Shown one piece after another: positions 4,104-36,032 of a stretch of DNA of 64,000 bases (within the stretch, counting starts at the first letter, position 1; every line of letters starts with the position of its first letter). Location: the IMG/VR virus record IMGVR_UViG_3300030102_003270, positions 1 to 64,000 of that record. One strand, written 5' to 3'. The stretch comes from a virus. The position numbers were made by a program, and so were the translations under genes. Below the pieces are notes generated by a model, which ran no database searches, was not told the DNA's origin, and saw only the letters and a list, made by a program, of their open reading frames with translations.

Positions 4104-4177
4104 GGCCAGAATCAACATGTCAAATGTTCATGAGTTTCCTAGCGGAAATGTTTGAAGAAATGGAGAAGGTAGAATGA
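4100..4177 (+). CDS. Possible 25-aa micro-ORF
   Basis: MRPESTCQMFMSFLAEMFEEMEKVE*; ATGA overlaps at both ends; GGAGGAG upstream. Confidence 0.4.
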   Translation: MRPESTCQMFMSFLAEMFEEMEKVE

Positions 4178-4347
4178 GTTGGAAAAAACTGTTGAAGCAA
4201 GATGAGGGTCTTGGTGATACCATAGAAAGGATAACCACCAAGACAGGAATAAAGAAAGCCGTTGATTATGTTTCTGAGAAAACTGGTCGTGATTGCGGTT
4301 GTCAAGCAAGAAAAGAAATGCTTAATAAAAAATTCAAGTATAATTGA
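4174..4347 (+). CDS. 57-aa tagged protein with a GLGD...CGC..R..LN motif, absent from the ORF track
   Basis: Manual translation MSWKKLLKQDEGLGDTIERITTKTGIKKAVDYVSEKTGRDCGCQARKEMLNKKFKYN*. Confidence 0.8.
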   Translation: MSWKKLLKQDEGLGDTIERITTKTGIKKAVDYVSEKTGRDCGCQARKEMLNKKFKYN

Positions 4348-4359
4348 GGTGATTGAATG
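4345..4359 (+). promoter_or_regulatory. Stop/Shine-Dalgarno/start cassette TGAGGTGATTGAATG, identical at 26279 and 53487
   Basis: GAGGTGA is complementary to the archaeal 16S 3' end; the same 15-mer occurs at three gene junctions. Confidence 0.7.
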
Positions 4360-5271: not shown

Positions 5272-5277
5272 ATTTAG

Positions 5278-13170: not shown

Positions 13171-14823
13171 ATGGTGCAAGAGAGAAGAAGATTCACCCTC
13201 ACTAATCTATTTAGGAGGGCGACCCCAAAGCCGGAAGATAGGAAGATATTCAATCCCGGCATACAAGAAAAAGATACAAGTTATATGATAACTTCACCAA
13301 TACTCTATCATGTTGCTCAGTCTTCTGTAATAGTCAGAACTTGCACAACCCAGTTGAAGAATGAGATATTCAGAAGAGGATATACATGGGAAGAGAAGTT
13401 CACATCAAAATGCGGTGAATGTGGCAACGAGCATCAAAGCGCAGTAAAACAGTGTGCTGATTGTGGTTCTATGGAACTAAAGAAACCAGACAAAAGCCAA
13501 TTAAAATATGCTCACAAATTCCTAGATAGATATGTCAATTCATCTGAGCAATTGTTCATTGACGTATTGAAGGAATTAGAGGATGACCTAAACATCATGG
13601 ATGACGCATATATCATATTGGTCAAGGAATACTATATTGACAATGCTGGTAAAATAAGAATGCATAAGATAAATCAGATATATCGTGGCGACCCTGTGAC
13701 CATGCACATCCATTCAGACATGAATGGTGACAAGGGTAATTCTGGCTTCACTTGTATCAAGCACAGGGACCAAATCACAGAAGACCCAGTTGGACATTGT
13801 GAGATATGCGGGGATATGATGTACCCTGTCCATTATGTGAATAGAGTGAACGGAAAGGAACAGTATTACATCGAGGGTGAGGTTCTTCACTTCAGTAAAT
13901 ACAACCCAAGTAGATTGTATGGGCTATCTCCTGTATTGACATTATGGAATCACATAACCACTTTACTTGCTATGGAGAACTACGTCAATTCATCATATTC
14001 CAAGAGCAGAATGCCTAGAGGACTTCTTGCGGTGCAGACTAGAAATATAGACTCAATGAAATCCTTCTGGCGAGGAGTCAAAGAAAAGATGGAGCAAGAC
14101 CCTCACTTCATACCTGTTATGGGTATTGAGGCAGAAAACGGTAAGGGTTCTATTGAGTGGATTAAGTTCATGGATAGTCTGAAGGAAATGGATTACGTTT
14201 CTGTTAAGGACGACCTAAGAGATAGAATATCAGCATTCTACGGAGTAAGCAAGATATTCATGTCTGATAATTCTGCTAGTGGCGGATTGAATAATGAGGG
14301 TATGCAGATACTTGTGACCAATAGGGCAGTAGAGATGGCTCAGACACTTTACAATGAATATGTTTTACCTTTCATAACCAAGGAGTTTGGTATTACAGAT
14401 TGGCAATTGAAACTACCTCCATCGGAAGAGGAAGATGCAATAGCAAAACTAAGGAAGAGAGAAATCGAAGTAAATATTGCAGCATCAATAAAGAATCTAG
14501 GTTTCGAGGTTGATATGGACGATGAAGGAAGATTTACGTTTGAGAAGCCTCCTCCAGAAATGCAAGAAGGAAAGAAGGATAAGGATGAGGAAATAGAATT
14601 AGACCCCTATGCAGGAACCAACATAGACCAATCACAATTAGGACAAATGATGGAACAAGGAACTAGACCTACTAAAGAGGAAGCAGGTAAGCCAGCAGAA
14701 GTAAAGGGACAGACTAGAAACAAACCTAGCATGAGTGTAGGTCCAGACCAAAGATTCACAGGACTACCTAAAGAAGCAGGTAATCAAAACGTGGACAAGA
14801 GGACAGAAAGGAGGGTTGGTTAG
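13171..14823 (+). CDS. Portal protein with Zn-ribbon insertions
   Basis: Follows TerL; portal motifs EVLHF...YGLSP, MPRGLL and RISAFYGV; CxxC pairs are inserted. Confidence 0.9.
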   Translation: MVQERRRFTLTNLFRRATPKPEDRKIFNPGIQEKDTSYMITSPILYHVAQSSVIVRTCTTQLKNEIFRRGYTWEEKFTSKCGECGNEHQSAVKQCADCGSMELKKPDKSQLKYAHKFLDRYVNSSEQLFIDVLKELEDDLNIMDDAYIILVKEYYIDNAGKIRMHKINQIYRGDPVTMHIHSDMNGDKGNSGFTCIKHRDQITEDPVGHCEICGDMMYPVHYVNRVNGKEQYYIEGEVLHFSKYNPSRLYGLSPVLTLWNHITTLLAMENYVNSSYSKSRMPRGLLAVQTRNIDSMKSFWRGVKEKMEQDPHFIPVMGIEAENGKGSIEWIKFMDSLKEMDYVSVKDDLRDRISAFYGVSKIFMSDNSASGGLNNEGMQILVTNRAVEMAQTLYNEYVLPFITKEFGITDWQLKLPPSEEEDAIAKLRKREIEVNIAASIKNLGFEVDMDDEGRFTFEKPPPEMQEGKKDKDEEIELDPYAGTNIDQSQLGQMMEQGTRPTKEEAGKPAEVKGQTRNKPSMSVGPDQRFTGLPKEAGNQNVDKRTERRVG

Positions 14824-15829: not shown

Positions 15830-17935
15830 ATGAGTTTCATGGATGTATTGAAGGCCAAGCCGATAATCATAGAGAAATCTATGCCTATTGTAAAGGAAGA
15901 CTATACATCCAGACCATTATACAGAAAACTAGAATCTAGGTTAGAGGAAATCAGTGGACTGAGCGCACCTGTTCCCACTATAATGCAAGCGGTTGATGAA
16001 GCAATAAAGGATAGCCAACAGTCTGATGTTGAGTTATCAGCAGAAGAAGAGAAGCAAATGAAGGTGAAGATAAAATCACTCAAGGAAGAATTGAAACTAG
16101 TTGACAAGACTAGCAAAAAAGCATATCAAAATAGAATAGAAAACCTTGAGAAAATCATATCGAGGTTAGAGGAACTAAAAGAAACCCACGATGAAATCAT
16201 GGAAAGATTAGAGCCACTAAAGAAGGAATATAAAGAACTAGAAGGGGGAATGGGGGAAGAGGCTCAGACTAGAGCAAAGGAACTAAATGAAAAAATAAGA
16301 CCTCTAGAGAAAGAAATCAATGAAATAAAGAGTAACATGCGTTTTGCATTTACTGGGACTTTCTCATATCGTCCGGTGTTACCCGAAGAAAAGACTGAGG
16401 GAAAAATGGCTGATAAAGTATCTAAGAAGCCTAGAAACGAGAGACAAAGAGATGGAGATGCAGAATATGACATCACCTTCTCAACAGGGATAGCGAACTA
16501 CAAGAAGAGGGTGGAAGAATACAACAAACTAGAGCCTATCGTAACAAGCAAGAAAGACAAGGCAATAACAAAGGACAAGATAAAACAACAAATAGATTCT
16601 TTGGAAAGGCAAGTTAAAACAGGGAAGAAAGATAGACCTCTTCTAATCACTTCCAAGGGAGGTATAGGTAGGCAGGAGAATGTCAATGCTGTTCTAGTCA
16701 ATGCAATAAGACAACTAAACATGTCAGAATATGCAGATGAAATAGTAGACAAACTCTCGCCTAAGATACGCCAAAGAGTCAAAAGACAAGAAAGAGAACT
16801 AAACAACCAAGAAGAAGCATTGATGCAGTTAATAGATGAACTGAATGCTGAAGAGATATCTAGTTCCACCGAAACAAGATTGCAAGTAAACAATATGCTC
16901 AACAATAGATTCCTATACAATATGACTCTAAACGTATCTGGAGAAAGAGATAACATACATCCCGATGTGGTAAATGCGCTAAGGGAACCAGATGTGTTTG
17001 AGGATGTAGTTAGAAAGATGAAGGAAATAAAACCAAGTCTGAAGAGAGTGAAGTCCAAGGATGTAAGAACAGTCATGCAATCCTTACGAACAGCAAAGAC
17101 AGATGTATCTCAAATAGCGAGACAGGTTCTATCAAGACAATATCCCGACAATATAGAATACAAAGACCTACTAGCATTGAACTCAGAATCGGATTTAAGT
17201 AAATTACTAGACAAACTTGGAATGCTGGTTGCATCATGGGATGCATTGTCAGATAGATTTTTCCTCGATGCAGAAGATGTGGATGAACAGTATTGGTCTG
17301 ATGAAAAGATAGTAGCAGAAATAAAAGAAAGTTGGGAGACACTATTGGAAGATGCACCGGAGATAGCAGGGTTGAGCGAGGAAGAAATGCAATCCAAGTA
17401 TAATGAGCATCTAAAGAAAGGATATAGTAGACTGGTCAAGCAAATGGAAAAACTATACAAGAGCATAATAATGTATTACGATGCAAGCATGACTCTATTA
17501 GATGCATTCATCAGCGCAAAGGGATTCAGATATCAACTACCTGCAACTAGTGATTGGTCGGGAATACTCACATTAGGGGCAGGTGAAAAGAGAGACACTG
17601 ACTTGGCTTTGGAAACCATTAGAAAGAATCTAATGGAGACAAAGAAGGATGTGGATGGACAGCGAACCATAATGAAAGGCTTCATTCCTAATATAGATGA
17701 CTACATGCAATCGCTAGAGGAAGACAATGTAGATAGCACTTTACTCGATGAATATGAAAGAGCCAGCAAAGAAGCACAAAGAGAAAGAGTTAGGCAAGCA
17801 AAAGAAGAAGACGATAAGAAAATAAGAAGGGATAAGGATAATCCTTATTCCAGAAGGGCAACTACCGAGACAATGAGAGAGGCATCTAAGCCGTTCCTTG
17901 AACAGCCAAAAAGAAAGAAAGAAGAAGAGGAATAA
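15830..17935 (+). CDS. Large coiled-coil protein with a variant tag (F for W)
   Basis: ATG at 15830 gives MSFMDVLKA; long heptad-like charged region. Confidence 0.75.
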   Translation: MSFMDVLKAKPIIIEKSMPIVKEDYTSRPLYRKLESRLEEISGLSAPVPTIMQAVDEAIKDSQQSDVELSAEEEKQMKVKIKSLKEELKLVDKTSKKAYQNRIENLEKIISRLEELKETHDEIMERLEPLKKEYKELEGGMGEEAQTRAKELNEKIRPLEKEINEIKSNMRFAFTGTFSYRPVLPEEKTEGKMADKVSKKPRNERQRDGDAEYDITFSTGIANYKKRVEEYNKLEPIVTSKKDKAITKDKIKQQIDSLERQVKTGKKDRPLLITSKGGIGRQENVNAVLVNAIRQLNMSEYADEIVDKLSPKIRQRVKRQERELNNQEEALMQLIDELNAEEISSSTETRLQVNNMLNNRFLYNMTLNVSGERDNIHPDVVNALREPDVFEDVVRKMKEIKPSLKRVKSKDVRTVMQSLRTAKTDVSQIARQVLSRQYPDNIEYKDLLALNSESDLSKLLDKLGMLVASWDALSDRFFLDAEDVDEQYWSDEKIVAEIKESWETLLEDAPEIAGLSEEEMQSKYNEHLKKGYSRLVKQMEKLYKSIIMYYDASMTLLDAFISAKGFRYQLPATSDWSGILTLGAGEKRDTDLALETIRKNLMETKKDVDGQRTIMKGFIPNIDDYMQSLEEDNVDSTLLDEYERASKEAQRERVRQAKEEDDKKIRRDKDNPYSRRATTETMREASKPFLEQPKRKKEEEE

Positions 17936-19307: not shown

Positions 19308-21821
19308 ATGCTTCTGAAGTCAGTCTTTGTTGGCAAGCAAAACAAAGCACTAGCGAAGCGTATCTTAGACTTCTATGAAGATGTTAGGTATAATTATCTA
19401 TCAGCAAGGGAAGACCCGAAGGAATATAGAAAGAATTGGGTGGAGAGCGTAAAGAGAATAAGAAAGGATTTTGACGGACTAGGAGAGTTTTCTTCCATGC
19501 TGAAGAAATATCTAGAGGAAGAGAATGTATTTAGTCAGAAGTCACTTAATCCCGAATCATACGATGCCAAGAAACTATATGATTCTATCAAGCAGATGAG
19601 ATTTAACTCTTCTGAATTGAATGACCCGTTTGCCAGACAGATGGGCGATGATGTCATAGAGAATCTACTACGCTCCCCTCCAATATTTGCTATGTTCATA
19701 CACTATGCATTGCGTTCAGATTCTAGCGCAATAAAGGAAGATGCGTGGAATAAGCATGACCTCAAACCAGATAAGATTACTCAAGGTGCGGAAGGATTGG
19801 ATTTAGCATTAAAGGATGTACCATTATACATCATTGAGCATTATGGAGATGACAAGGATGGTAATGATAGAGTAGAGGATAAATTTGAGGCAGCATTGAA
19901 ACTACTGAAGAAAGTCTTCCTAGAAGAGAAATCAGAAGATGAGTGGGAAGCACTAGTTGACCTAGACCTAAAGAAGAGTGATGAAGAGAAGGCTGAGATA
20001 GAATTCATAATACCTAACAAGCCGATGTATAGAATATTTGAAATAAATGACATAAAGGAATTGAAAGGATTCACAGGAGAATGGGTAGTTCAAGAAAAGT
20101 ATGACGGAATAAGAATACAGATACACAAGACAAATGGGGATGTGAAGATATATTCTTACAATAAGAAGGACATATCTGAGAAGTGCAAGGACATAATCAA
20201 GATACTGAAACAGAAAAAGTTCGGTGATTTGATACTTGACGGAGAACTGATACTATATGATGGAGATGAACCTCTACATAGAGCAGACACAATAGCCCAC
20301 TTGTTCAAGAACAAATACAAGGATGCTACACTAAAAGCCAAGGTATTCGATATTATGTCCCATGATGGGGAAGACCATACTGATAATCCATTGAGAGAAA
20401 GAGTGAATATACTTCAGTATCAACTGGCTCAACACTCCGAGGATATACTAGAGTTTCCAAACAAGAAGAATACGAGGATAGCAGACTCGTTAAGCGAGAT
20501 AGACAAATACGCAAAAGACATTATGCAGTCAAAAACCTCAGAAGGGGTGGTGATAAAAGATATAGAATCAACATATTACATAGGCACGAAAAAGAATCCT
20601 AAGTGGATTAAGTTCAAGAAATTCGTTGACTTAGATGTAATAGTGTTGGAAAAGAAGAAGACAAAATCAAATATGTACTCTTACAGTGTAGGGGTTGGTC
20701 CTTTATCTGGTGAAGAAGCAAGAGAGCATACGGGAATAGAGTATGAAGGAAAGACATATCTGCCAGTAGGAAAGGCACTTAACACCAAAGAAAACGTAGA
20801 CATAGGTGCTATTGTAAGAGTGAAGGTTGATGAAGTAAGAAGGGCAGGTAAAGGATATAGTCTGTATTCTGCTAAGGTTATAGAAATTCCAGAAGTAGAT
20901 ACTCCAGAAAAACTAGTCACTCTAGAGTTACTATCAAAGGATGGTAGGAAGTCCTTGAAGTATAATGTAGAAGAAGCATTGCTAAAATACACAATAACTG
21001 ATGGTATTCACGGCACTGCTGAGATTCTATTGAAATCAGACTATGAAGGATATAGCATATATGGTATTGAAGGAGACAGTCTAATGGAGAAGAATGCCAT
21101 TGCTGATATGGATATGTGGAAGGAGCAGTTATCTGAGATACATAAGGGTAAGACAACTGAAGCAATAGCCATAATAAAACAATATCTGCAAGAGGAAGAC
21201 CCAGATGAAAAAGGTATTCATGTCAAAGATATATTTGAGTTCATAGAAAAGAGAGATGCAGACTTGACAGAATCAATGTTTGAAAATAATCCAAGGAAAC
21301 TAAAGAACTTCCTAAATGACCATGATGCATTCATACCATTAGGTAATCAGAAGTTCACTGCTAACTCTAAGATAATAATAAAAGACAAAGAAGAAGATAA
21401 CAGTAGATATGGTAAGTTTCAACTATATACTAGAAAAGACAATAATATTGATTTCATAATTAATTACAAAGATGAAACATTTGCTTGGACTATTGACATA
21501 GATGACTCAAAAGATATTTACAACCTATTTGGAAAATCAGGTAAATATCCAGCAGAAGTTTCTAGGGGAGTTCAAAAGGATAAACTTTTAGATAGCGGTA
21601 AAATACTAATGGGAGTTCAAAAGCATGGATATCATGAATATAAATTAGAAGGGGATAAGTTTGAGACTAGATTACATTTGAGAGTTATACCAGTCAAAAA
21701 CCAAGATACATGGCTTGCTTGGACTGGAATAAAACAAAAGATGTTAGAAAGGTCAGATGATGAAGGAATATGGGATATTACTGAAGATAGGTATAAAAAA
21801 TTAACCATGCAAATAAAGTAA
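19308..21821 (+). CDS. lig: ATP-dependent DNA ligase with N- and C-terminal extensions
   Basis: Motif I QEKYDGIR, III ILDGEL, IIIa VFDIM, IV EGVVIK, V KWIKFKK, then an OB domain; C-terminal region resembles a LigD phosphoesterase-like domain. Confidence 0.92.
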   Translation: MLLKSVFVGKQNKALAKRILDFYEDVRYNYLSAREDPKEYRKNWVESVKRIRKDFDGLGEFSSMLKKYLEEENVFSQKSLNPESYDAKKLYDSIKQMRFNSSELNDPFARQMGDDVIENLLRSPPIFAMFIHYALRSDSSAIKEDAWNKHDLKPDKITQGAEGLDLALKDVPLYIIEHYGDDKDGNDRVEDKFEAALKLLKKVFLEEKSEDEWEALVDLDLKKSDEEKAEIEFIIPNKPMYRIFEINDIKELKGFTGEWVVQEKYDGIRIQIHKTNGDVKIYSYNKKDISEKCKDIIKILKQKKFGDLILDGELILYDGDEPLHRADTIAHLFKNKYKDATLKAKVFDIMSHDGEDHTDNPLRERVNILQYQLAQHSEDILEFPNKKNTRIADSLSEIDKYAKDIMQSKTSEGVVIKDIESTYYIGTKKNPKWIKFKKFVDLDVIVLEKKKTKSNMYSYSVGVGPLSGEEAREHTGIEYEGKTYLPVGKALNTKENVDIGAIVRVKVDEVRRAGKGYSLYSAKVIEIPEVDTPEKLVTLELLSKDGRKSLKYNVEEALLKYTITDGIHGTAEILLKSDYEGYSIYGIEGDSLMEKNAIADMDMWKEQLSEIHKGKTTEAIAIIKQYLQEEDPDEKGIHVKDIFEFIEKRDADLTESMFENNPRKLKNFLNDHDAFIPLGNQKFTANSKIIIKDKEEDNSRYGKFQLYTRKDNNIDFIINYKDETFAWTIDIDDSKDIYNLFGKSGKYPAEVSRGVQKDKLLDSGKILMGVQKHGYHEYKLEGDKFETRLHLRVIPVKNQDTWLAWTGIKQKMLERSDDEGIWDITEDRYKKLTMQIK

Positions 21822-21860: not shown

Positions 21861-23111
21861 GTGTCCGAGTCAAAGTTACTTAAGTCTGGAGATGATAACG
21901 AGTTTAATATTCTCAAATCAGATGATTTAATCATAGGTGGATATGCTTCAATAGAAATAGTAGACAAACAAAATGATTTAATTACACTAAAAGCATTAGA
22001 AGAAGCAGTAACAAAATACATGAAAGATGCAAAATATAGAAATGTAATGTCAAACCATTCAAATGTTCAAGTAGGAGATGTAATAGAAAAGTATAGAGAT
22101 AAAAATGGTAATCTCCATAGAACACAAGTAGATGATGTAGGATTTTATGTTGTTATTAAATTAAGAGATGACATAGAAAAAGCAAAAGAAATATCAAGAG
22201 GTATTAGAAAAGGAACATTACGTTCTTTTAGTATAGGTGGTCAAGCCTTAAGTAAAAGAAAAAAGTCTAATGAAGAATTAGGTGAATATAACGAAATTGA
22301 CAAGTTAGAACTCCATGAAGTAACAATTTGTGAGAAGGGGATAAATCCAGAAGCAAAGTTTGACATTCTAAAAGAGGAGAAAGATAAAATGAGCGAAAAG
22401 TTGGAAAAAGCACTTGAGGAGTTGAACGGTCTTATGACGCAGTTGAACGAATTCAAGAAAGAAGAGTCCGACATGGACGACAAAGAGAAAATGTCCATGA
22501 AGGAGAAAGACGAAGAGAAAATGTCCATGAAGGACAAAGACGAGGAGAAGATGGGCTATGAGTCTATGGATTCCGATGAGGAAGACGTTGAGATGATGGC
22601 TGAGAAAGACCTCGAAATGGCTGATATGGATGAAGCCGATATGGAAAGAAAGGGAAGAATGGGGCCAGAAGGCTTTGTTGAGAATGCTGGTGCAGGTGAA
22701 CCCGGACAGGGCAAAAAGCACGAACAAGCAGGTCAACTAGGTTCTCTCTACAAAGAGTGGTCGAATGATGAATTCTCCACACTAGACCTTTCCAGTGAAA
22801 ATGTGGAGAAAGCATACGAGGCTTTCAAAGCAGAACAGTTAGAGAAGATGGCTTATGATTCTCTAAAGGAGCAGTTCGCTGCAAGGTTCGCTAATGAGCA
22901 AAGTGTCCGAAAGGCCGAAGTAGCACGAAGCGAGTATGATGCAAAGAACGAAGTTGAAGCACTAAGAGAGGAATTTGCTACACTAAGGAAATCTCTTTCT
23001 GAGCAGACTGATACAATAGCAAAAGCACAGGCATTTGAAATGCCAGATGTTGATGTATCAGAAATGTCATGGGCCGAGATAAACAGTTTTGTTTCACAAT
23101 ATGAGGAGTGA
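21861..23111 (+). CDS. Prohead protease fused to a scaffolding domain
   Basis: HK97-type protease motifs GYAS...D.QND, NH, RSFSIGG and HEVTICEKGINPEA; acidic coiled-coil C-terminus; directly upstream of the MCP. Confidence 0.9.
   Translation: MSESKLLKSGDDNEFNILKSDDLIIGGYASIEIVDKQNDLITLKALEEAVTKYMKDAKYRNVMSNHSNVQVGDVIEKYRDKNGNLHRTQVDDVGFYVVIKLRDDIEKAKEISRGIRKGTLRSFSIGGQALSKRKKSNEELGEYNEIDKLELHEVTICEKGINPEAKFDILKEEKDKMSEKLEKALEELNGLMTQLNEFKKEESDMDDKEKMSMKEKDEEKMSMKDKDEEKMGYESMDSDEEDVEMMAEKDLEMADMDEADMERKGRMGPEGFVENAGAGEPGQGKKHEQAGQLGSLYKEWSNDEFSTLDLSSENVEKAYEAFKAEQLEKMAYDSLKEQFAARFANEQSVRKAEVARSEYDAKNEVEALREEFATLRKSLSEQTDTIAKAQAFEMPDVDVSEMSWAEINSFVSQYEE
22485..22553 (+). repeat. 30-bp in-frame tandem repeat in the scaffold (EKMSMK[ED]KDE x2 plus a partial copy)
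   Basis: gagaaaatgtccatgaaggagaaagacgaa / gagaaaatgtccatgaaggacaaagacgag / gagaagatg. Confidence 0.85.
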
Positions 23112-23116
23112 TTTAG

Positions 23117-24463
23117 ATGAGTGGATATATTAAGACAGTAAAAGATTTAGAGGCCGCAACCTATGGAATTAGAGGCGGTACAGGAAATACCCTACTGAAA
23201 GGTGCAGGTGTTGTTGGTGGATTACATACCGCCCATGACGCTGGAACATCTGTTTTGAGTACGGGTGCAGCAAGCGGATTAACTTCGCTATATAACACAA
23301 TATTTGGACAGAAAGTTTGGTCTATGCTTAACCAAGAGGTTAATGCTTTGGCTATTCTTCCAAAGAGGCCATACACGTCAAGTGGATGGAGAATACTAAA
23401 AAGCAGGGCATTTGGTGGAAGTGGTTCTACCTTTGACGTTGGTACAGGTGATTTTGGAGGGGCTGCTCCAAGAGCAGACAAGTTAGGTGCTGTTGAGGAG
23501 AATGCTGCAATAGGTGTAGGAAACCTATCGGCTGTTGCACCCGAATACACAACGCTGTTTACCAGCCCTAAGACCGTTGCACATCTGTTTGAGTTTTCTG
23601 AGATTGCTCTTGAGATGGCTAAGATTGACGATGGTGTAGGTGACTTAAGAGCCTTAATCCGTGAGGATATGGGTAAACACCACGCTGAAGTACAGAACAA
23701 GATGCTACTAATGCCTCTTGAGAAGTATGACGAAGCAAACACACTAACAGACCTTGGAAGGCAATATACTTCTTTGATGAAGGTAGTTGCTTCAAGTGCT
23801 GAGTTAGCAGCAATGCAGGATGCTTCGTTAATAGCAACAACGTCTGGCTCTACCCCAGATACCATAAGCAAGTTGTACGGTAACAACGATAGGGACTTAG
23901 ATGGTAGCGGTAACCCTACTGCTTCTTTCTTAGACGCAGAAGTTGATTTTGGTGCTGGATATGCTACGGCAAACTGTCGTGTTCTAACCTTAACTATCTT
24001 AAACGATATGCTAAGGCGAATCCGTCAAAACGGTGGTAGTCCAAAAGTTATCTTAACTGGATATGATACTATTCAGCATCTAGGTGACTTGCTACAAGCA
24101 CAAGAGAGGTTCATGGACCGAAGGGAGATTATTCCTACGCACAACGGCGTAAGGGGTGTTAAGGGTGCAGAAGTTGGCTTTAGAGTCGCTACTTACTTTG
24201 ACATACCAATTATTCCTTGTAAGGATATGCCAAGCACAGGTGAATCTACCTCAAACAGACTAAGTGACATACTGATACTTGATACCGACCATCTTTGGAT
24301 GAGCGTTATGAAGCCTACTCAGTATTTCGAGGACGGTATTGACAACGGCAACCCATTCGGTGTTGGAACATTAGGAAACAGGGCAATGTATCGAACCATT
24401 GCTGAGACTGGTTGTTCCTTCTTCAAGGGCCAAGGTAAGATAACCAACCTAAAGAGTGCGTGA
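23117..24463 (+). CDS. Major capsid protein (HK97 fold)
   Basis: 448 aa directly after the protease; ends with PIIP.KD...ILILDTD.L...MYRT...QGKITNL, typical of HK97-fold archaeal virus MCPs. Confidence 0.9.
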   Translation: MSGYIKTVKDLEAATYGIRGGTGNTLLKGAGVVGGLHTAHDAGTSVLSTGAASGLTSLYNTIFGQKVWSMLNQEVNALAILPKRPYTSSGWRILKSRAFGGSGSTFDVGTGDFGGAAPRADKLGAVEENAAIGVGNLSAVAPEYTTLFTSPKTVAHLFEFSEIALEMAKIDDGVGDLRALIREDMGKHHAEVQNKMLLMPLEKYDEANTLTDLGRQYTSLMKVVASSAELAAMQDASLIATTSGSTPDTISKLYGNNDRDLDGSGNPTASFLDAEVDFGAGYATANCRVLTLTILNDMLRRIRQNGGSPKVILTGYDTIQHLGDLLQAQERFMDRREIIPTHNGVRGVKGAEVGFRVATYFDIPIIPCKDMPSTGESTSNRLSDILILDTDHLWMSVMKPTQYFEDGIDNGNPFGVGTLGNRAMYRTIAETGCSFFKGQGKITNLKSA

Positions 24464-25653: not shown

Positions 25654-26055
25654 ATGCCAGCATTAGAAAAAGAAACAAAACTCGTAATGACGATATTATT
25701 CGTCGGAGCGATAAGCGGAACAAACGTCTACTTCTACTCGAAGTATGGTGATATGATTGCCTTCAACAACTACGCTCATGCGTTGGTTTTCGGGCTTATG
25801 ACCATTGGAGGAATACTAGTCATGAAGGCTATTTTTGACCTAGCCTTGAACGACTACATAGAGATGGCCTTACTAGACAGACGAATTGCTGCCTATTGGT
25901 CTAAGAAACAAAGAGATGACCAGCAAAGGGAGAAGATTAGAGCCACTATGCAACAATATAGAATCCCTCAACAGTTTGCTCCACAATTCAATCAACCAGT
26001 AGTAGAAGAGAACAGGCAGACCATCGCCCCCTCATTCTTAGCAAAATTAGAGTGA
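25654..26055 (+). CDS. Two-TM membrane protein with a Gln-rich tail
   Basis: Hydrophobic segments LVMTILFVGAISGTNVYFY and ALVFGLMTIGGILVMKAIF. Confidence 0.75.
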   Translation: MPALEKETKLVMTILFVGAISGTNVYFYSKYGDMIAFNNYAHALVFGLMTIGGILVMKAIFDLALNDYIEMALLDRRIAAYWSKKQRDDQQREKIRATMQQYRIPQQFAPQFNQPVVEENRQTIAPSFLAKLE

Positions 26056-26059
26056 TGTC

Positions 26060-26281
26060 ATGTTAGATGCCATAGCGTTTGGTATGGATGAGGGTTCTTT
26101 GGCATATGATATGCAAAGAGCGCATTCAGCAGACGTTTGGTTTCTAAGGGCTAGGTTTTATTTTTGGGGATTCATTGCATCAGTTACTAGTTTTCTTGTT
26201 GGACATGGAATATCGTTATTTGGAGTTAATCTATATGAATCAGTCTGGGAGGGTCTTAAGGATTTCATCAGCCACCTATGA
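26060..26281 (+). CDS. Small membrane protein
   Basis: Hydrophobic segment FYFWGFIASVTSFLVGHGISLFGV. Confidence 0.7.
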   Translation: MLDAIAFGMDEGSLAYDMQRAHSADVWFLRARFYFWGFIASVTSFLVGHGISLFGVNLYESVWEGLKDFISHL

Positions 26282-26290
26282 GGTGATTGA

Positions 26291-26959
26291 ATGTCAGTAA
26301 TGACAGGTTTTGTCATAATAATGGCAGAACAGATAGGACTTCTGTGGAAGAAACTTCATGCAGTATCTTTTGGAGTATATGGAGCCACCAAGGTAGGAAA
26401 GACAACATTACATCACCAATTAAGAACAAGGGGAGAAGTGCCACAGATAAAAGAAAGAACAGTTGGAAGAGGAAGGGCAACTAGGAAATCAATAAAGATA
26501 GATGGCGACCAGCACACAATCAAGACAGCAGACATAGGAGGAGAGACACTTTATTGGGGTGAATGGCTTAAAGACATGAAAAGCCGTAAAGTCAAATACA
26601 TTATCTTCATGATTGATGATAGACATATGGATAAACACTATGATATTGAACAGCAGTTGTGTTGGACGTTTCTAGTAGATACAATATGTTCTCCTTATTG
26701 GGATGCTATAAATAGAAGACAGAAGAAAAAGAATCACGATTATCCAGTAGCAGTAGGATTATGGGCGAACAAATTTGATTTGTGGAAAGACAAATATGAA
26801 TATGAAGACATACAGAAACACCCAATATTTGAATCATTCAAAGACGGTATGCAAAAATTAAACGATAAAGGAATACCTTGTTATAAGTATATAGTAAGTG
26901 CAAAATCAGACTCAGAAATGGTTTATCGTGGTGTAGCAACAATGATAGAGGATTACTAA
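26291..26959 (+). CDS. Small Ras-superfamily GTPase, Arf/Sar-like
   Basis: G1 GATKVGKT, G2 RTVG, G3 DIGG, G4 NKFD, G5 SAK; N-terminal hydrophobic/amphipathic helix. Confidence 0.9.
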   Translation: MSVMTGFVIIMAEQIGLLWKKLHAVSFGVYGATKVGKTTLHHQLRTRGEVPQIKERTVGRGRATRKSIKIDGDQHTIKTADIGGETLYWGEWLKDMKSRKVKYIIFMIDDRHMDKHYDIEQQLCWTFLVDTICSPYWDAINRRQKKKNHDYPVAVGLWANKFDLWKDKYEYEDIQKHPIFESFKDGMQKLNDKGIPCYKYIVSAKSDSEMVYRGVATMIEDY

Positions 26960-27023
26960 TGTCATATGATAACTGTTCCATGTCGCCGTATTGCTATTGT
27001 AAAACATGTAAGGAGAGAAAAGA

Positions 27024-27692
27024 ATGACGATGAATTACCAACCGCCAAGTTTAATCGGTGCTACCAATGCAACGGTAGCCAACCCGTTTATGCCACCACT
27101 GAAGTTTGCTAGGGCTGCGGGTTCTATAATGACATATGAATTTAAGAGTGAAAAACCAAAGAAGCAAGTAAAGGAGATGCTAAAGGTTCTTTGGCCCGAA
27201 AGAAAGTCCTTTTTCAAAATACCATTTGGTTACAAATTTAACACTAAGGACAGATGTGTTGTCTGTGGAACTCATAAAATCTGGGATAGGTCAGACCCTA
27301 TGAGGCCACCTATACCACTTCACAAAGTAAAGAAAGGCTATCCAATGAGAGGGACTTATTGTGAAAAACATGCGGGATTGTATATGCAATATGAAATGCT
27401 AGAACAACAGATAATCGCACAAGAGCATGGGCTAGAATTTAATCAATATATACCAAAACCAAAGATGCCCAAGATGCTACAATCTGCACCGCTAACTTCA
27501 TTAAGGCAATCAGATATAGAGTCATTGTCTACGATAGGTTGGATGATACGACCACCTAAAATGTTAAATGAAACAAAAGAAGATGAGTTGTTCAGATTAA
27601 CAATAGAAAGCCAGTCAATAAATACAAGAATAATAGAGTTGATGTCAACAGGCACACAAATAGTACAAAGAGAAATAGAAGAGGTGGAATGA
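27024..27692 (+). CDS. Zn-finger protein (CVVC...CEKH)
   Basis: Cys/His ligand pattern with Pro-rich flanks; follows the GTPase. Confidence 0.7.
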   Translation: MTMNYQPPSLIGATNATVANPFMPPLKFARAAGSIMTYEFKSEKPKKQVKEMLKVLWPERKSFFKIPFGYKFNTKDRCVVCGTHKIWDRSDPMRPPIPLHKVKKGYPMRGTYCEKHAGLYMQYEMLEQQIIAQEHGLEFNQYIPKPKMPKMLQSAPLTSLRQSDIESLSTIGWMIRPPKMLNETKEDELFRLTIESQSINTRIIELMSTGTQIVQREIEEVE

Positions 27693-27693
27693 A

Positions 27694-28401
27694 ATGGGAC
27701 TTTTTGGAACAAGCAATACAACATTGGCACAGCAGATAACACAACAAGGTGCTGCTGATTTCAAAGCAGTTAACAACTTGCTAACGCTACAAGAGAATCA
27801 TGTAGAGGAATTCTTCACGTATCATGGTGTGGAATTCATTACTGCATTTGAGAAATTATTAGAAGATGTGACTACTAGGGTGATAGCACAGATGCTTCCT
27901 AAACTAAAATTCATCAACAACACAAACGGTGATTTGGAAGTAGAGCAGAATGCACTGAGGGAGTTTGAAACAATAACTGCTGAGAACATACAATTAGACA
28001 TACAGGCTATTGTTTCTGCTGCGTTGAATACAGAAGTGGTCATGCAAAGGAAGATGGCTAAACAACAGTATCTAGAAGCACAAGGTTTCGCTACATCACA
28101 AATGCCACAGCAACAAACAATGCAACCACAAATGGGTATGCCAAACCAAGGAGGACTAAACCCCTCTCAAATAACAGGCGGTAATCCTATAATGCAAGCA
28201 AATAATATGATAAATCAACAACAACAGGCATTCAACAATCCGTCTGGATATCCTGTTCCACCAGCAGGAACCGATACAATGGGTAATCCATATTGGATAG
28301 ACCCTGCTACCGGACAAGCAACATATACACCGCCGGGTTCTGGGTTAGGTCTAGGTGCAATGATTCAGAAAGGTGCTGCATGGGCGGCTTGGCTGGCATG
28401 A
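27694..28401 (+). CDS. Gln/Met/Pro-rich protein with an amphipathic C-terminus
   Basis: Helical N-half, QMPQQQTMQPQMGM low-complexity region, ends GLGLGAMIQKGAAWAAWLA. Confidence 0.75.
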   Translation: MGLFGTSNTTLAQQITQQGAADFKAVNNLLTLQENHVEEFFTYHGVEFITAFEKLLEDVTTRVIAQMLPKLKFINNTNGDLEVEQNALREFETITAENIQLDIQAIVSAALNTEVVMQRKMAKQQYLEAQGFATSQMPQQQTMQPQMGMPNQGGLNPSQITGGNPIMQANNMINQQQQAFNNPSGYPVPPAGTDTMGNPYWIDPATGQATYTPPGSGLGLGAMIQKGAAWAAWLA

Positions 28402-28410
28402 GGCGGATAA

Positions 28411-30285
28411 ATGACCATAGTTATTCCTTCTCGTCTGGTATTGGACAAGCAGAATAGCGTAGTATCTTTAGGTGAAACCATAAGGCTAGATTCTTCCGAC
28501 ATGGGAAATACATCTAGCCCTATGTTTAGGTTGATGGTAAGATACTTACTTAATCCTGTATCTTCGGGTGACTATGACAAAATAGAAAGAAACCTACCCA
28601 AATTCCTAAACTATGACTTCATGGAGAATGCATCAGAACAAACTCCCGATATGAAATACGATAAAGAGGAATACAAGAAGCATGTAGATGATGCTTACAG
28701 ATTAATATCAGAAATGGACATAAGGCAATTCTTAGAGGAACATGTAAAGCCGAAAATAAGACAAAGTGATAAAGCAAGTTTTAGCCAAAAAGATTTAGAT
28801 TTCGTTCTGATTAACTTAGGTGAATCAAACCTACCCATGAAGGAGTATCTAACTTCTTCGGGGTTTGACCAAATAATAGGTGCTAGGAAGACAGGAGAGA
28901 CTAGCAGAAAAATTAGGAATATAGCAGAATCCAAAGCAATGTATGAAGATGCTTTGAAAAACATTGACAAATACATAGATGTGACCCAGACTAAAAATGA
29001 ACAGAAGGCCGGAGGAGCAGGAGGGTATTTGACAACAGTTGATGGGGTGCGTGAAGAAAGACCTGCTAGTATCATAGAATACGATATAGTAATAGATACA
29101 GAAAAGATGTTCAACGATATTTTCAAAGAGGCAGGTATATCCCCTCAAATGAACCTGCAAAAGTCACAGATAAATCTAGATGATGTCTTGGAAGACTATC
29201 AAAAACAAATACAACCCGAAAGCGATTATCAAATGGAAATAAAACCAGACATGCCTACTCTACAAGATTTGAGTGAGTTCAAATTCATATGGTTTCCTAA
29301 AGATTTGAGGGACGAAGCAAGTAAGGATTCTCAACTAGCGGAGAAGATTATCAAAATAAACATGAAGTTGATTTGGAATGAGGATAGGTCCGAGTATGAA
29401 ATGCCATATGATACGCTAGACGAGGAACAAAAAAATCTACTTTTTTTACTCTTTAACACTAACGTAATAAAGATTGATTCAATTTATAAGTATGTTAAAG
29501 ATGGTAAAACACCTTCAAACAGAAGTTTGAACAAAGAAGAGGTAGATTTCCTAAAAACACAAATACAACCAAGAGCCAAAACACAAGGACAAAAACCTAG
29601 TTTCGTAGATGAATATGAACAAAAATTATGGAGTAATGTAAAAGATAAAGTGTTAGCAGATAGAAGAATGGATGTAATATTACATGCTCCAGAAGAAAGT
29701 AAATATAAAGAAATAAAGTTATTTAAGACACCAATAAATTATTCTAAGCCAGTAGTTAATGGAAAAGAAGGATTATTAAGTGTAAGAAGAAATGATTCTT
29801 CTAAAGTCATGAATGATATTATCAAAAGTATGTTGAATCCTAGTGACATAGGTTTGCATACACTAAAGGCAAGAGTCATTCAAGTAGATGAGCCTTATGT
29901 TAAACTAGGAGAGAACTATCTTAGAAACAAAACAATGCCAAGTGGAGGTTCTTCAAAGGACAATAAGAAAATATTTAGAGAACTTTTAGATGAGAAATGG
30001 AATGTATTTAGATTGATAGATGCAGATTATAAATCAAAGGCAAGACCATTTTTGAGTGATATAGAGGAAGCATTTCCTCAAAGAAGACCAAACAAAAAGA
30101 AACTTACAGATGTTGATTATGAAAGAATGAAAAAACCAATTACTAGACCGGGCAGTAATCCTGTTGGTTCAGCAGGTAGAGTTAAGGAAGGAGGCCAAGT
30201 CAAGATGATTAGTGTCAAGTCAAGGGTATTCAACAGTTCCATAAAGAGACAACTTAGAAGACTAAAGAGGTATGTAAATGAGTAA
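28411..30285 (+). CDS. Hypothetical protein
   Basis: 624-aa ORF; no recognisable motif. Confidence 0.7.
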   Translation: MTIVIPSRLVLDKQNSVVSLGETIRLDSSDMGNTSSPMFRLMVRYLLNPVSSGDYDKIERNLPKFLNYDFMENASEQTPDMKYDKEEYKKHVDDAYRLISEMDIRQFLEEHVKPKIRQSDKASFSQKDLDFVLINLGESNLPMKEYLTSSGFDQIIGARKTGETSRKIRNIAESKAMYEDALKNIDKYIDVTQTKNEQKAGGAGGYLTTVDGVREERPASIIEYDIVIDTEKMFNDIFKEAGISPQMNLQKSQINLDDVLEDYQKQIQPESDYQMEIKPDMPTLQDLSEFKFIWFPKDLRDEASKDSQLAEKIIKINMKLIWNEDRSEYEMPYDTLDEEQKNLLFLLFNTNVIKIDSIYKYVKDGKTPSNRSLNKEEVDFLKTQIQPRAKTQGQKPSFVDEYEQKLWSNVKDKVLADRRMDVILHAPEESKYKEIKLFKTPINYSKPVVNGKEGLLSVRRNDSSKVMNDIIKSMLNPSDIGLHTLKARVIQVDEPYVKLGENYLRNKTMPSGGSSKDNKKIFRELLDEKWNVFRLIDADYKSKARPFLSDIEEAFPQRRPNKKKLTDVDYERMKKPITRPGSNPVGSAGRVKEGGQVKMISVKSRVFNSSIKRQLRRLKRYVNE

Positions 30286-32188: not shown

Positions 32189-33772
32189 ATGGGCAGCAGT
32201 GAAGTATATACAGGAGCAGGAGCATCGGCAACGTTAATCCCAGAAGCGGATTATAACATTGGAAATCAGTTAGGACCGATATCAATAACCACAGATGTAA
32301 AGGGTTTTGGTTTCCTTAATTCAAACAATAACAGTGCAGTAGATAGAACAACATTATCATGGGGTTCTGACGCTACTGACGGCGGCGCAGAATCAGATAC
32401 CAATAGGCTCCCTGTCAATATATATCAAGGATGTTTTGCTGAAGTCTCTAAATACGAATCGGGTTCAACCACAGAAGTTCCCTTGGGAATACACGTAATC
32501 AAGAGCAACGCTGCACAGACAATAACTTTCGATAGAGAACTTTCTGGTACAGATACAGATAGATTCACAGTAAAAATACTAGGGTTCGGAACACCTTTAC
32601 ATTCACCAGCAGTAATGACAGGTAAGCACAATTTACTATCAGATAACTGGTTAGGTTTGGTGAACTCAATAACTGCACCAAGCATTGATGCTGAAATGAA
32701 GCAATTAAATCTAGCACTAGGGGGAACCAGAAACTTTGGTTTCCAATACAAAGGAGCAGAATCCTACGGAAGTGCATCTATTGATGTATCTCTAAACAAT
32801 GGTTCTTGGTTATATTACGCATTAGGAAAGAAAACATTTACTGCAACTCAAAAAACTAATTCTCAAGGTACGGCTATAAATTTAAGTTTGAATCAAGAAA
32901 ACGGTAAAGTGTACTATGACGATACAAATAAGACATTTCATAGATTAGAATCAACAACATTAAGCCCACCTAAACCATACGGAACAGCAGACGCTAGTAT
33001 ACTGAAGTTATCTGATGATAGTAAAATAGATTATCAATTTACAGAAGCCGATGGAGACTCACTACCGTCTTTTGCATTAGAATTCACAAATGAGAAAGGT
33101 AATGTTGCTGACGCAAACTATTTTCAAGATGCTTCAGATGAAAGATTATTCTCTCGTATATTCACAGGATGCCAAGTCAATACATTATCAATAAATTTTG
33201 AAGAGGGTCAAGAAGTTAAGGCTAGTATTGACGCAGTTACTAGAAGAGGATATGATAGCAACCAAAATTACACACCAAAAAGAAGAGTTAGAACACCATC
33301 TTCTTTATTCAACTACAATGATACCGATGCAAACTTACCATTTATGTTTTCAGATGGAACCATTCAAGCATTTGGTCAAAATCTTGCTAGAGTAAAAAGC
33401 GGGACTCTTACTATTAACAACAACATAACTCCACAAAGATACATCGGTAATTATGATAGGTCTATTGTATCTGCACATATACCTGCACAAAGAACTTATG
33501 AAATAACTCTTAACTTACAAATTACAGACAGGTTGATTTTTGATGAATTAAGAAGTGCTGATGAAGTTACTCTAGGAGACATTGTTCTAACATTTGATAA
33601 AAATGCTACTGCCGATACTGATAAGATTACAATGACGTTGAAAGATTACATAGTGCAATCTGTTGATATTCCGTTCCCAGACGACAAAGGAATGATTGAT
33701 GTGGCCGTGACTCTAGCGGCCCGGACCCTACATGAGTGTAAATATCATGGTAAATGGATTATCATTGGATAA
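32189..33772 (+). CDS. Major tail tube protein with insertions
   Basis: LPSFALE...FTGCQVNTLSINFEEG...GTLTINNNITP, a siphoviral tube pattern; precedes the chaperone and TMP. Confidence 0.75.
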   Translation: MGSSEVYTGAGASATLIPEADYNIGNQLGPISITTDVKGFGFLNSNNNSAVDRTTLSWGSDATDGGAESDTNRLPVNIYQGCFAEVSKYESGSTTEVPLGIHVIKSNAAQTITFDRELSGTDTDRFTVKILGFGTPLHSPAVMTGKHNLLSDNWLGLVNSITAPSIDAEMKQLNLALGGTRNFGFQYKGAESYGSASIDVSLNNGSWLYYALGKKTFTATQKTNSQGTAINLSLNQENGKVYYDDTNKTFHRLESTTLSPPKPYGTADASILKLSDDSKIDYQFTEADGDSLPSFALEFTNEKGNVADANYFQDASDERLFSRIFTGCQVNTLSINFEEGQEVKASIDAVTRRGYDSNQNYTPKRRVRTPSSLFNYNDTDANLPFMFSDGTIQAFGQNLARVKSGTLTINNNITPQRYIGNYDRSIVSAHIPAQRTYEITLNLQITDRLIFDELRSADEVTLGDIVLTFDKNATADTDKITMTLKDYIVQSVDIPFPDDKGMIDVAVTLAARTLHECKYHGKWIIIG

Positions 33773-34342: not shown

Positions 34343-34554
34343 AAGAGATTCGTAGAGGACTAAGAGGAGGAGAAATAAAACCTACTTTAGCCTCACGAAT
34401 CCTTATTTATTCATATTCAAAAGTATTTGGTATAAGTCCAATGGAAGCATACAATACTCCGGCAACAATAATATTAGAAATGATGAAGATACATACAGAA
34501 GCAGAACAGTTGAAATCAGAAGAAATAGATAAGCAAATAAAGAAGGTAAGATAA
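34333..34554 (+). CDS. -1 frameshift extension of the tail chaperone (gpGT-like)
   Basis: Heptamer GGGAAAC at 34333-34339; the -1 frame reads LKEIRRGLRGG...IDKQIKKVR* and its TAA overlaps the TMP ATG. Confidence 0.8.
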   Translation, partial: GKLKEIRRGLRGGEIKPTLASRILIYSYSKVFGISPMEAYNTPATIILEMMKIHTEAEQLKSEEIDKQIKKVR

Positions 34555-36032
34555 TGGCTAAAGATGCACCTGAACTAACCAACGATTTAACTGTTGCTAT
34601 CAACAGATTAAATCGAGCAAAAGACGGATTAATATTTCGTTTTGGTCAAGCAGGTGAAAGCGGAAATAAACTTTGGAATGTCATTAGTAGATTTAGTTCT
34701 GGTAGCACATTTTGGAGATTACAAAATTATCTTCGTGGTGTCTCAAACGTAGTTAACTTCTTCACAAAAGCACAAGAAGAAAACAGAACACAAATTTTAG
34801 AGTCATTAGAATCTAATCTAGCACTTGCTGATTCATTGAAAATGTTAAAAGAAAGATATGACAAAATAGAAGCAGGTGGAACTACACCATACTATGAATT
34901 ACTTTTAGGTGATTTAGGAGATGCAAAATTAGCAAAAGAGGAAGCAAAAGGATTTTATAAAAAATATATAGATGAAATTGAAAATGTTGTAAAAAAAAGA
35001 GGCGCACAACTTAGAAAATCTATATTGAATAGAGGTAAGGGTATAACAAAAAGATTTGCCGAGGCTAATCCTTTTGAGTTCCAAAAACCAACATTAGAAG
35101 GAGGGACAAAAAATGCACCAATACGAGGCTCAATTGGATTTATTTTAAAAGAAACTTTTGCTCCTTTAACGAATATACTAACTAAGACATTTGAATTTAC
35201 AAAAGGTCCATTTCTTGACAGTATAAAAGGCCCGGAAAGAATAGTGAGAAAAAAATTATTTGGTCTAAGTAAACTTGAAGAATTTGAAAATAAAGGTAGA
35301 ATTGGATATAGAAAGAAAATGACACAAAACCTGCAAGTGATGGGAAAATGGTTCAAAGGAGCAGGTAAGGCTCTAGGAGAATTTTCAGTTAAAGCGGCTG
35401 CTCTCATAGGTAAATTTGCTATGTATGGATTGCTGATTGTCTTTGGAATAACTCTAATTGCTAAAATAATCAACGCAGGATGGCCTGTGATTAGAAAGCA
35501 GTTTGAAGATGCTTTTGGTTTCTTCAAGAAAGCATTTTTGAATGTTCTTGGAATTCTTTTAGGAGTATTCAATCTAATTGGAAAAATATTCGCAGGTGAT
35601 ATAGTAGGAGCAATCAAAGTTTTCTTCAAAGAAATTGTATTCAATCTAGTCAAATTGCTAGGTAATCTCCTAGCAGGTCTATTCAAGATTATGTTAGGTA
35701 TCATTACAGGAATCTTAGCAGGTATTTACAATGCTACATTTGGAGCGTTAACAGGTCGCAAAATTGGTAAGCATTCAACAGGAGGTGTATCTAGAGGAGG
35801 TCTAGCGGTTGTTGGCGAAAATGGACCGGAACTAGTATCATTACCTAGAGGTGCAAGAGTACAGAACAATGCAAATAGCATGGGTGCAAGAGCAGGTGGA
35901 AACAATATTCACATTCACATAAATGGCCGTGTTGGTGCTTCTGATGCAGAAATAAGAGATATTGCCAACAAGGTAGCAAGAGAAATCAACATAAGAATGA
36001 ACAGAACAGGAGCAAATAGAATAGGTGCATGA
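34554..36032 (+). CDS. Tape measure protein
   Basis: Helical and amphipathic; C-terminal GG...GLAVVGENGPELVSLPRGARV motif; follows the chaperone. Confidence 0.85.
   Translation: MAKDAPELTNDLTVAINRLNRAKDGLIFRFGQAGESGNKLWNVISRFSSGSTFWRLQNYLRGVSNVVNFFTKAQEENRTQILESLESNLALADSLKMLKERYDKIEAGGTTPYYELLLGDLGDAKLAKEEAKGFYKKYIDEIENVVKKRGAQLRKSILNRGKGITKRFAEANPFEFQKPTLEGGTKNAPIRGSIGFILKETFAPLTNILTKTFEFTKGPFLDSIKGPERIVRKKLFGLSKLEEFENKGRIGYRKKMTQNLQVMGKWFKGAGKALGEFSVKAAALIGKFAMYGLLIVFGITLIAKIINAGWPVIRKQFEDAFGFFKKAFLNVLGILLGVFNLIGKIFAGDIVGAIKVFFKEIVFNLVKLLGNLLAGLFKIMLGIITGILAGIYNATFGALTGRKIGKHSTGGVSRGGLAVVGENGPELVSLPRGARVQNNANSMGARAGGNNIHIHINGRVGASDAEIRDIANKVAREINIRMNRTGANRIGA

Follow-up and report, generated by a model that had tools for sequence, protein, structure and literature searches.

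A five-gene small-GTPase and membrane-protein cassette in a magrovirus-type tailed virus, possibly a switch for virion release

How do tailed viruses of archaea leave the cells in which they multiply, and what might a small GTPase be doing among the genes of one of them? According to the review PMC10791045, nothing that takes part in the exit of archaeal tailed viruses has been characterised, and the question is raised here by five tightly packed open reading frames (ORFs) on the + strand at positions 25654-28401 of a 64,000-nucleotide stretch of virus DNA (hereafter the window), which is the first 64 kb of IMG/VR record IMGVR_UViG_3300030102_003270, a genome of 96,269 bp that is complete by CheckV. 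These five genes, here called the cassette, encode two small membrane proteins (M1 and M2), the GTPase, a partner protein and a Gln/Met/Asn-rich protein; an original prediction, made from the letters of the window, had taken them for an Arf/Sar-like membrane-remodelling or egress module placed inside the virion operon. Our analysis suggests that the five products would form one membrane-bound GTPase switch complex, made together with the structural proteins and most likely timing membrane disruption for virion release (egress or lysis), a reading to which we assign a probability of roughly 0.4.

The GTPase and its nearest relatives

The third gene of the cassette (ORF3, 26291..26959, + strand) encodes a protein of 222 aa in which the five G motifs follow one another in order: G1 GATKVGKTT (26381-26407, with GATKVGKT at residues 31-38), G2 RTVG (residues 56-59, 26456-26467), G3 DIGGE (residues 81-85, 26531-26545), G4 NKFD (residues 160-163, 26768-26779) and G5 SAK (residues 203-205, 26897-26905). 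A beta4 strand, IIFMID, lies at residues 104-109, and a conserved polybasic insert, RRQKKK (26714-26731), precedes G4. All motifs were invariant or nearly so among 29 homologues and were kept in distant clades. The AlphaFold2 model (predicted local distance difference test, pLDDT, 72; predicted template-modelling score, pTM, 0.73) had a G domain, with a helix predicted at residues 2-22, and it matched Rab, Ras and Arl structures of the PDB with a probability of 1.00 in Foldseek and with Z scores of 11-14 over ~160-180 residues in the VIA structure search, which is independent of Foldseek. Judged by its motifs and its modelled fold, the protein is a G domain of the Ras superfamily (TRAFAC, extended Ras-like).

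Its placement within the superfamily was derived from search rankings (PDB profile, structural Z score and ESM Atlas). Pfam matches were weak and non-discriminating, with MMR_HSR1 (PF01926) at threshold, followed by SRPRB, Roc and Ras; the window GTPase scored 18.1 bits against SRPRB (PF09439), below the 25-bit cut-off, and had no match to Pfam Arf (PF00025) at E<=1. The relatives behaved similarly, 24 of the 29 matching SRPRB weakly, ten matching Arf weakly (best E 9.3e-5) and eight matching G-alpha, and in NCBIfam the generic small_GTP domain alone came up, below its cut-off. A phmmer search of the PDB with the single GTPase sequence returned no match, relatives being found with a profile only. 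The family profile, run against all PDB sequences, placed the Asgard protein GerdArfR1 (8OUN) at the top (E 4e-7), in an alignment that spans the N-terminal helix, followed by Arl8A/B (5e-5 to 2e-4) and KRas (~1e-3). In the VIA ranking, Arl2, LokiRagO, Galpha-i, Arf6, SRbeta, Galpha-s, Sar1 and Arl13B reached Z 12.9-14.2, with Rab, Rho and Ras at 11-12. The ESM Atlas neighbours outside the GTPase family, a lead only, were prokaryotic clusters partly tagged Arf and one Asgard Arf/Rag cluster.

By profile and predicted fold, these rankings place the viral GTPase nearest to the Arf/Sar/SRbeta/Galpha branch. Arf-family proteins (GerdArfR1, 8OUN/8OUM, bioRxiv 10.1101/2024.02.28.582541; Arl8, Arl2, Arf6 and Sar1) provide the top PDB profile match and are among the best folds, and they share with the viral protein a putatively membrane-binding N-terminal helix that leads straight into the G domain, a switch II of the form DxGG(Q) with a Trp after it, a hydrophobic beta4 whose last residue is Asp, and the NKxD and SAK motifs. 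In contrast to them, the viral GTPase, which is 12-20% identical, has a Glu in switch II, carries the extra polybasic insert before G4 and appears in viruses only. Moreover, its switch II reads ADIGGE in the window, with no Trp before the G3 Asp as there would be in the Arf WDxGGQ signature, and the distance from the G2 Thr (T57) to the G3 Asp (D81) is 24 residues against 19 in GerdArfR1 (HMMER alignment), the insert being longer still in clade 2, one of two divergent clades described below. Because of the missing Pfam Arf match, the longer G2-G3 spacing, the absent Trp and a hydrophobic helix of low moment, membership of the Arf family is not shown. The original Arf/Sar-like assignment was thus right about the nearest branch, but placement in the family itself is weakened by the Pfam result, an interswitch 5 residues longer and the anchor-like look of the N-terminus.

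That N-terminus (residues 1-22, 26291-26356) does form the hydrophobic helix that had been predicted (hydrophobicity, H, 0.63; hydrophobic moment, muH, 0.15), and on sequence grounds it looks closer to a hydrophobic anchor of the SRbeta type than to an Arf amphipathic helix. SRbeta likewise has a hydrophobic N-terminal anchor directly before its G domain, and its structures 2fh5_B and 7obq_v were matched at Z 13-14, but in the viral protein DxxG is not followed by a His, neither an SRX nor a longin partner could be recognised, and the virus is not a eukaryotic setting. The helix varies among relatives, being more amphipathic in P0071 (muH 0.42) and resembling a transmembrane (TM) segment in P0152 and P0199. 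Many homologues begin at the second Met (MAGF.../MTGF..., 219-220 aa), and the true start may be 26300 instead of 26291, leaving one or two residues ahead of the hydrophobic helix. A hydrophobic N-terminal helix combined with a conserved polybasic loop is a typical two-part membrane-binding arrangement, and a GTPase switch that acts at a membrane is well supported by these predicted features.

The Glu found where the catalytic Gln would be expected had been singled out in the original prediction. It is indeed present in the window protein, but both residues occur in the family: among 120 cluster representatives of the window's own clade (clade 1), the residue after DxGG is Glu in 84 and Gln in 36, and Gln was found in 46 of 80 clade-2 loci. 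As far as the alignments tell, Glu for Gln is a within-family polymorphism and not a family trait, with both forms strongly constrained. In Ras, the Q61E substitution keeps or raises intrinsic hydrolysis, and therefore the Glu need not mean a dead switch.

Partner proteins, conservation and genomic contexts of the cassette

The GTPase gene is embedded in a compact array, with intergenic gaps of 1-9 nt except for 64 nt ahead of the fourth gene, a gap that contains an AGGAG ribosome-binding site; scans for sigma-70 promoters and intrinsic terminators, which are not designed for archaea, gave nothing above shuffles. M1 (ORF1, 25654..26055, + strand, 133 aa), present in all relatives, has two TM segments at residues ~9-28 (25678-25737) and 40-58 (25771-25827), then a strongly charged helix and a linker rich in Gln, with a conserved PSFLA..E motif at the C-terminus; its invariant residues are T8, L10-F16, G18, G22, N24, T50, G52, K58, F61-L63, R76, Y81 and W82. 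Its predicted topology is class II holin-like, with both termini cytoplasmic according to the positive-inside rule. M2 (ORF2, 26060..26281, + strand, 73 aa) combines a conserved N-terminal AYD.QRAHSAD..F.R.R motif with one TM segment at residues 38-56 (26171-26227) and a short Trp/His-rich tail. The TM counts that had been proposed for both proteins are backed by hydropathy and alignments, and the positions and strand of the five ORFs, together with every motif quoted for them, were recovered as well.

Immediately downstream of the GTPase in every case comes the partner protein (ORF4, 27024..27692, + strand, 222 aa), which has a basic KPKKQ motif, a GYPMRGTYC.KH core and C-terminal helices, and for which no Pfam family was found. 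Its earlier description as a Zn-finger protein fits the window's clade, in which the four ligands of a candidate Zn site (C78-x2-C81 ... C113-x2-H116, 27255-27371) are invariant, but not its more distant relatives: the ligands are complete in clade 1 only, being replaced by C..D..C..H in clade 2, while clade 3 lacks the second pair. An ArfGAP-like zinc finger was considered for this protein; the Arg four or five residues past the final ligand is not a conserved feature, the window having Met there, and the AlphaFold2 model of this protein was poor (pLDDT 54, pTM 0.26) and unfit for a fold search. The last gene (ORF5, 27694..28401, + strand) encodes the Gln/Met/Asn-rich protein of 235 aa, with a conserved helical N-terminal domain (NNLLTLQ.NHVE.FF.YHG), a low-complexity linker and an invariant NPYWIDP.TGQ..Y.PP.SG motif. 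Its extreme C-terminus (residues 217-235, 28342-28398) had been expected to be amphipathic and is hydrophobic instead (H 0.54, muH 0.17), looking like a tail anchor; an ESM Atlas search with this protein returned nothing usable. None of the five cassette proteins matched a head, packaging, ejection or internal virion family of PHROG, and none starts with the N-terminal tag W-x-x-[ILV]-[ILV]-K; if that tag addresses capsid cargo, the cassette proteins are not capsid cargo.

The cassette is strongly conserved, well beyond what chance would produce. Homologues of the GTPase fell into 361 clusters, and a GTPase-seeded scan of IMG/VR gave 564 confirmed loci, in the best 80 of which the five genes stood in the same order wherever the contig reached them. 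When loci were seeded with the major capsid protein (MCP), all five genes were found in 36 of the 36 that extend at least 4.2 kb downstream of the MCP, and in truncated loci the cassette genes were present as far as the contig went. The cassette is a core block of the window clade, and the co-occurrence of all five genes in relatives, which the original prediction had named as a check, held with both kinds of seed. Median identity to the window was highest for the GTPase (77%), followed by the partner (70%), the MCP (65%), the Gln-rich protein (63%), M2 (60%) and M1 (55%). The GTPase surpassed the MCP in all 76 loci compared, and no other gene of the region is so well conserved.

When 1.8 billion representatives were searched exhaustively with a profile, 81 proteins were found at E<1e-3, mostly fragments of the same family, and no cellular protein at that threshold. 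Distant full-length members, ~28% identical, retain G1-G5 along with the polybasic insert, an HPIF motif and the hydrophobic N-terminus; all are metagenomic, some on contigs of 59-97 kb, and none has a named cellular source. Among 185,579 species genomes, two contigs matched, both in a single metagenome-assembled genome labelled as the alphaproteobacterium 'Maricaulis'. These Maricaulis sp. contigs (NZMJ01000101.1 and NZMJ01000024.1) carry the cassette, with GTPases 96% and 65% identical, and are almost certainly mis-binned magrovirus DNA. The GTPase family appears to be confined to viral or metagenome contigs. Small GTPases of the Rab/Ras/Ran kind are likewise encoded by giant viruses of eukaryotes (mimivirus Rab, PDB 5xc5), but those are recent captures from eukaryotic hosts, whereas the present one belongs to a tailed prokaryotic virus, has no cellular source that we could find and is accompanied by dedicated membrane partners. 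Among the 50 matches listed from BFVD, every small Ras-type GTPase belonged to a giant virus that infects eukaryotes, and no prokaryotic virus contributed one.

Two divergent clades carry the cassette in other surroundings. In clade 2 (P0132-type; 80 IMG/VR loci, on contigs of up to 118 kb) the order is a 2-TM coiled-coil protein, a 1-TM protein, the GTPase, a 294-aa partner homologous to ORF4 (hhalign probability 94.5%, E 8e-8) and a Gln-rich protein. The block follows an ORF of >2,345 aa and lies ~7 kb upstream of the large terminase. That ORF was considered as a tail fibre, which would have put the block in the canonical lysis position, and the idea was dropped, the ORF having no similarity to the two giant ORFs of the window; its C-terminal 1,029 residues, the part scanned, had no Pfam or PHROG match. 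In clade 3 (P0129-type), found on an 81-kb metagenome contig, the order runs from a 2-TM coiled-coil protein through an acidic protein to the GTPase, with a 243-aa partner and then a Gln-rich protein after it, the partner matching ORF4 weakly (hhalign probability 8.7%). Other small membrane proteins surround the cassette here, and two glycosyltransferases, a fused GT1/GT4 (811 aa) and a GT2, lie directly upstream of it, with a serine recombinase ~5 kb away (the glycosyltransferase/recombinase region occupies 3822-7117 and 15984-16721 of this contig, L251) and no structural gene recognised within 10 kb. The P0129 seed found no matching locus among viral contigs, and the 81-kb contig may be a kind of element other than the tailed magroviruses.

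The cassette thus moves as a unit among three genomic contexts, which makes a role tied to head or neck assembly unlikely and argues for an autonomous, membrane-directed function. The original prediction had located it between capsid and neck genes. In the window the MCP does lie upstream, but neck genes were not identified and the next recognised family is the tail tube; nor is a place in the virion operon a fixed property, since clades 2 and 3 lie in other contexts. What emerges is a conserved, portable core block centred on a membrane-anchored small GTPase without a detectable cellular source.

A proposed role in virion release and competing explanations

In the mechanism that we propose, M1, M2, the anchor of the GTPase and the tail of the Gln-rich protein would sit in the host cytoplasmic membrane, with the soluble parts in the cytoplasm as the positive-inside rule predicts. 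The downstream partner, acting as a regulator similar to a GTPase-activating protein (GAP) or a guanine-nucleotide exchange factor, would set the nucleotide state of the GTPase, and that state would determine the moment at which M1 and M2 breach or rearrange the membrane. We rate virion release as the likeliest purpose because M1 is built like a class II holin, because no lysis gene was recognised among the ORFs scanned and because no egress system is known for archaeal tailed viruses. M1 agrees with the definition of class II holins (PMC10791045) in its small size, its pair of TM segments and its hydrophilic, charged C-terminus. With its highly charged cytoplasmic C-terminus and the small 1-TM M2 next to it, both co-oriented with the late genes, it recalls holin/antiholin pairs, but neither M1 nor M2 has a family match in Pfam or PHROG and no endolysin is adjacent. 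The original prediction had seen no endolysin-like gene in the window, and this observation now extends to the complete genome, across which 65 ORFs, mostly of at least 100 aa and including those beside the cassette, contained no lysin-like Pfam domain. To our knowledge, no holin system contains a GTPase. It is a bolder and more doubtful claim, which we put forward tentatively, that the cassette is a GTP-gated machine for membrane rupture or scission, in which a virus-specific Arf/SRbeta-like switch would work with its own integral membrane effectors, and that it is the first egress system to be recognised in tailed viruses of archaea.

Several points weigh against a role in release. Late expression of the cassette is deduced from its strand and gene packing, and holin-like architecture, which is common to many small membrane proteins, is weak evidence of holin function. 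No cell-wall or S-layer degrading enzyme accompanies the cassette, and its glycosyltransferase neighbours in clade 3 fit envelope modification equally with lysis. For M1, M2 and the Gln-rich protein, homology between the clades lacks statistical support (hhalign was not significant for M1 and the Gln-rich protein), so that what matches is architecture alone. Finally, a tblastn search of INPHARED phages gave no GTPase match, haloarchaeal tailed viruses included, and therefore the cassette is not a general egress system of archaeal tailed viruses.

Vesiculation or another remodelling of membranes without lysis has a close precedent in ArvA-ArvB-ArvC (OapABC) of Haloferax, where a small GTPase and a downstream Zn-ribbon protein drive the formation of extracellular vesicles and which is the only prokaryotic small-GTPase operon experimentally shown to deform membranes (PMC10927574). 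ArvA falls in PF01926, has Arf as its best remote match and a hydrophobic N-terminal helix, and is followed by the Zn-ribbon protein, proposed as a GAP (PMC10927574). By this published description, the likeness to the viral cassette lies in a GTPase that shares the Pfam profile and the N-terminal helix and in a putatively Zn-binding Cys/His partner directly downstream; such a pair might drive budding, tubulation or the formation of a compartment, with receptor shedding, the building of an assembly site or the export of material as possible purposes, and the position of the clade 3 cassette beside envelope glycosyltransferases would suit it. However, OapB (PF09846) and OapC (PF09845) had no match in the complete 96-kb genome at E<=0.01, while in the controls Haloferax and Methanosarcina matched both families and Methanocaldococcus matched OapC as well, and the cassette is therefore at most an analogue of ArvABC. 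The Zn ligands, moreover, are not kept in clades 2 and 3, and ArvABC is without integral membrane partners such as M1 and M2, which the viral cassette adds together with a Gln-rich, apparently tail-anchored protein. We consider remodelling without lysis to be a rather improbable purpose, if less so than those that follow.

The GTPase could also mimic or hijack a host membrane process, such as targeting by the signal recognition particle and translocon, or division, in the service of host takeover or superinfection exclusion. That it evolves more slowly than any other gene of the region, the MCP included, is what would be expected of a protein bound to a conserved host partner, and the SRbeta-like anchor, the weak SRPRB matches of most relatives and the SRbeta structures among its best folds point the same way; yet the cassette is co-oriented and packed with the late structural genes and not with the replication or early block on the opposite strand, and no host target was identified, which leaves this account unlikely. 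The same orientation and tight packing would suit a membrane-anchored morphogenesis factor that tethers or nucleates head assembly or packaging, in the manner of T4 gp40 at the portal, the GTPase then serving as an assembly checkpoint, and so would the position between MCP and tail tube in the window clade and the proximity to the large terminase in clade 2. The position relative to head genes varies, however, glycosyltransferases and a recombinase take the place of recognised structural genes in clade 3, and none of the five proteins resembles a head or packaging family, so that we also hold this possibility to be unlikely. Membrane-active ejection proteins of tailed phages are encoded within structural modules, and the cassette of the window virus sits in just such a block; M1, M2 and the Gln-rich protein could thus be packaged in the virion and form a channel in the recipient membrane upon entry, the GTPase serving as their chaperone. 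This last explanation is the least probable of all, given that the clade 3 context is not structural, that no similarity to ejection or internal virion families was seen, and that a GTP-dependent switch has no obvious role in a nucleotide-free particle.

If the cassette controls the rupture or remodelling of a membrane, it would provide a concrete five-gene set with which to study the exit of tailed archaeal viruses. Magroviruses, the type to which the window virus belongs, rank among the most abundant viruses of archaea in surface seawater (PMC5434244), and Arf-type membrane switching would then be used outside eukaryotes and Asgard archaea, by viruses that are some of the commonest in those waters. 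The range of Arf-like membrane switches would be widened to viruses of non-Asgard archaea, which bears on the evolution of such switches. No mention of a GTPase or of the cassette was found in the searchable magrovirus and Poseidoniales-virus literature. The host is uncultivated, so that tests will have to be heterologous, which will slow any resolution of the question of function.

The virus and its other genes

The virus is a tailed virus of the magrovirus type, since the ligase in its structural module and its replication set fit the published description (PMC5434244). The morphogenetic block of the window comprises, on the + strand, a large terminase (10399-11838), a portal (13171-14823), a prohead protease/scaffold (21861-23111) and the HK97-type MCP (23117-24463), with an ATP-dependent ligase (19308-21821, + strand) inside the structural module; the tail tube (32189-33772, + strand) is the first gene with a family assignment downstream of the cassette. 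On the - strand of the window lie a family B polymerase, which is split, and an ERCC4 nuclease, and the other 32 kb of the genome contain another complete ATP-dependent ligase, a replication factor C-like ATPase (AAA+/Rep_fac_C), a ribonucleotide reductase, MazG, ThiF and a TFIIB-type zinc ribbon. Philosof et al. describe magroviruses as having this kind of replication set and a ligase in the structural module, the ligase being placed in groups A and B, and a LAGLIDADG homing endonuclease in that module in groups A, B and D (PMC5434244); the ORF in the terminase-portal interval of the present genome (11843-13168) had no Pfam match, and a LAGLIDADG gene was not confirmed there. The magrovirus host is taken from the literature to be Marine Group II archaea (PMC5434244).

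Several neighbouring genes deserve mention. Directly after the cassette lies a 624-aa gene (28411-30285) that is by far the fastest-evolving of the region, with a median identity of 31%, often undetectable, and lengths of ~430 to 1,326 aa in relatives; it may encode a host-interaction or decoration protein, and the 370-aa gene that follows it is conserved. Past the tail tube, a 492-aa protein (34554-36032) without a Pfam family has three TM segments predicted within residues ~279-379 and may be a tail protein of the tape-measure-like or membrane-active kind. The late strand ends with a 94-aa ORF (54228-54512) that weakly matches PF16778 (phage tail assembly chaperone; E 0.0011, below cut-off). 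In the remainder of the genome (64001-96269), a pyrimidine-dimer glycosylase match was found among the ORFs, and one ORF matched the PAP2 lipid phosphatase superfamily (E 2.9e-11); the presence of a PAP2 membrane lipid phosphatase alongside a membrane GTPase cassette in one virus is possibly noteworthy.

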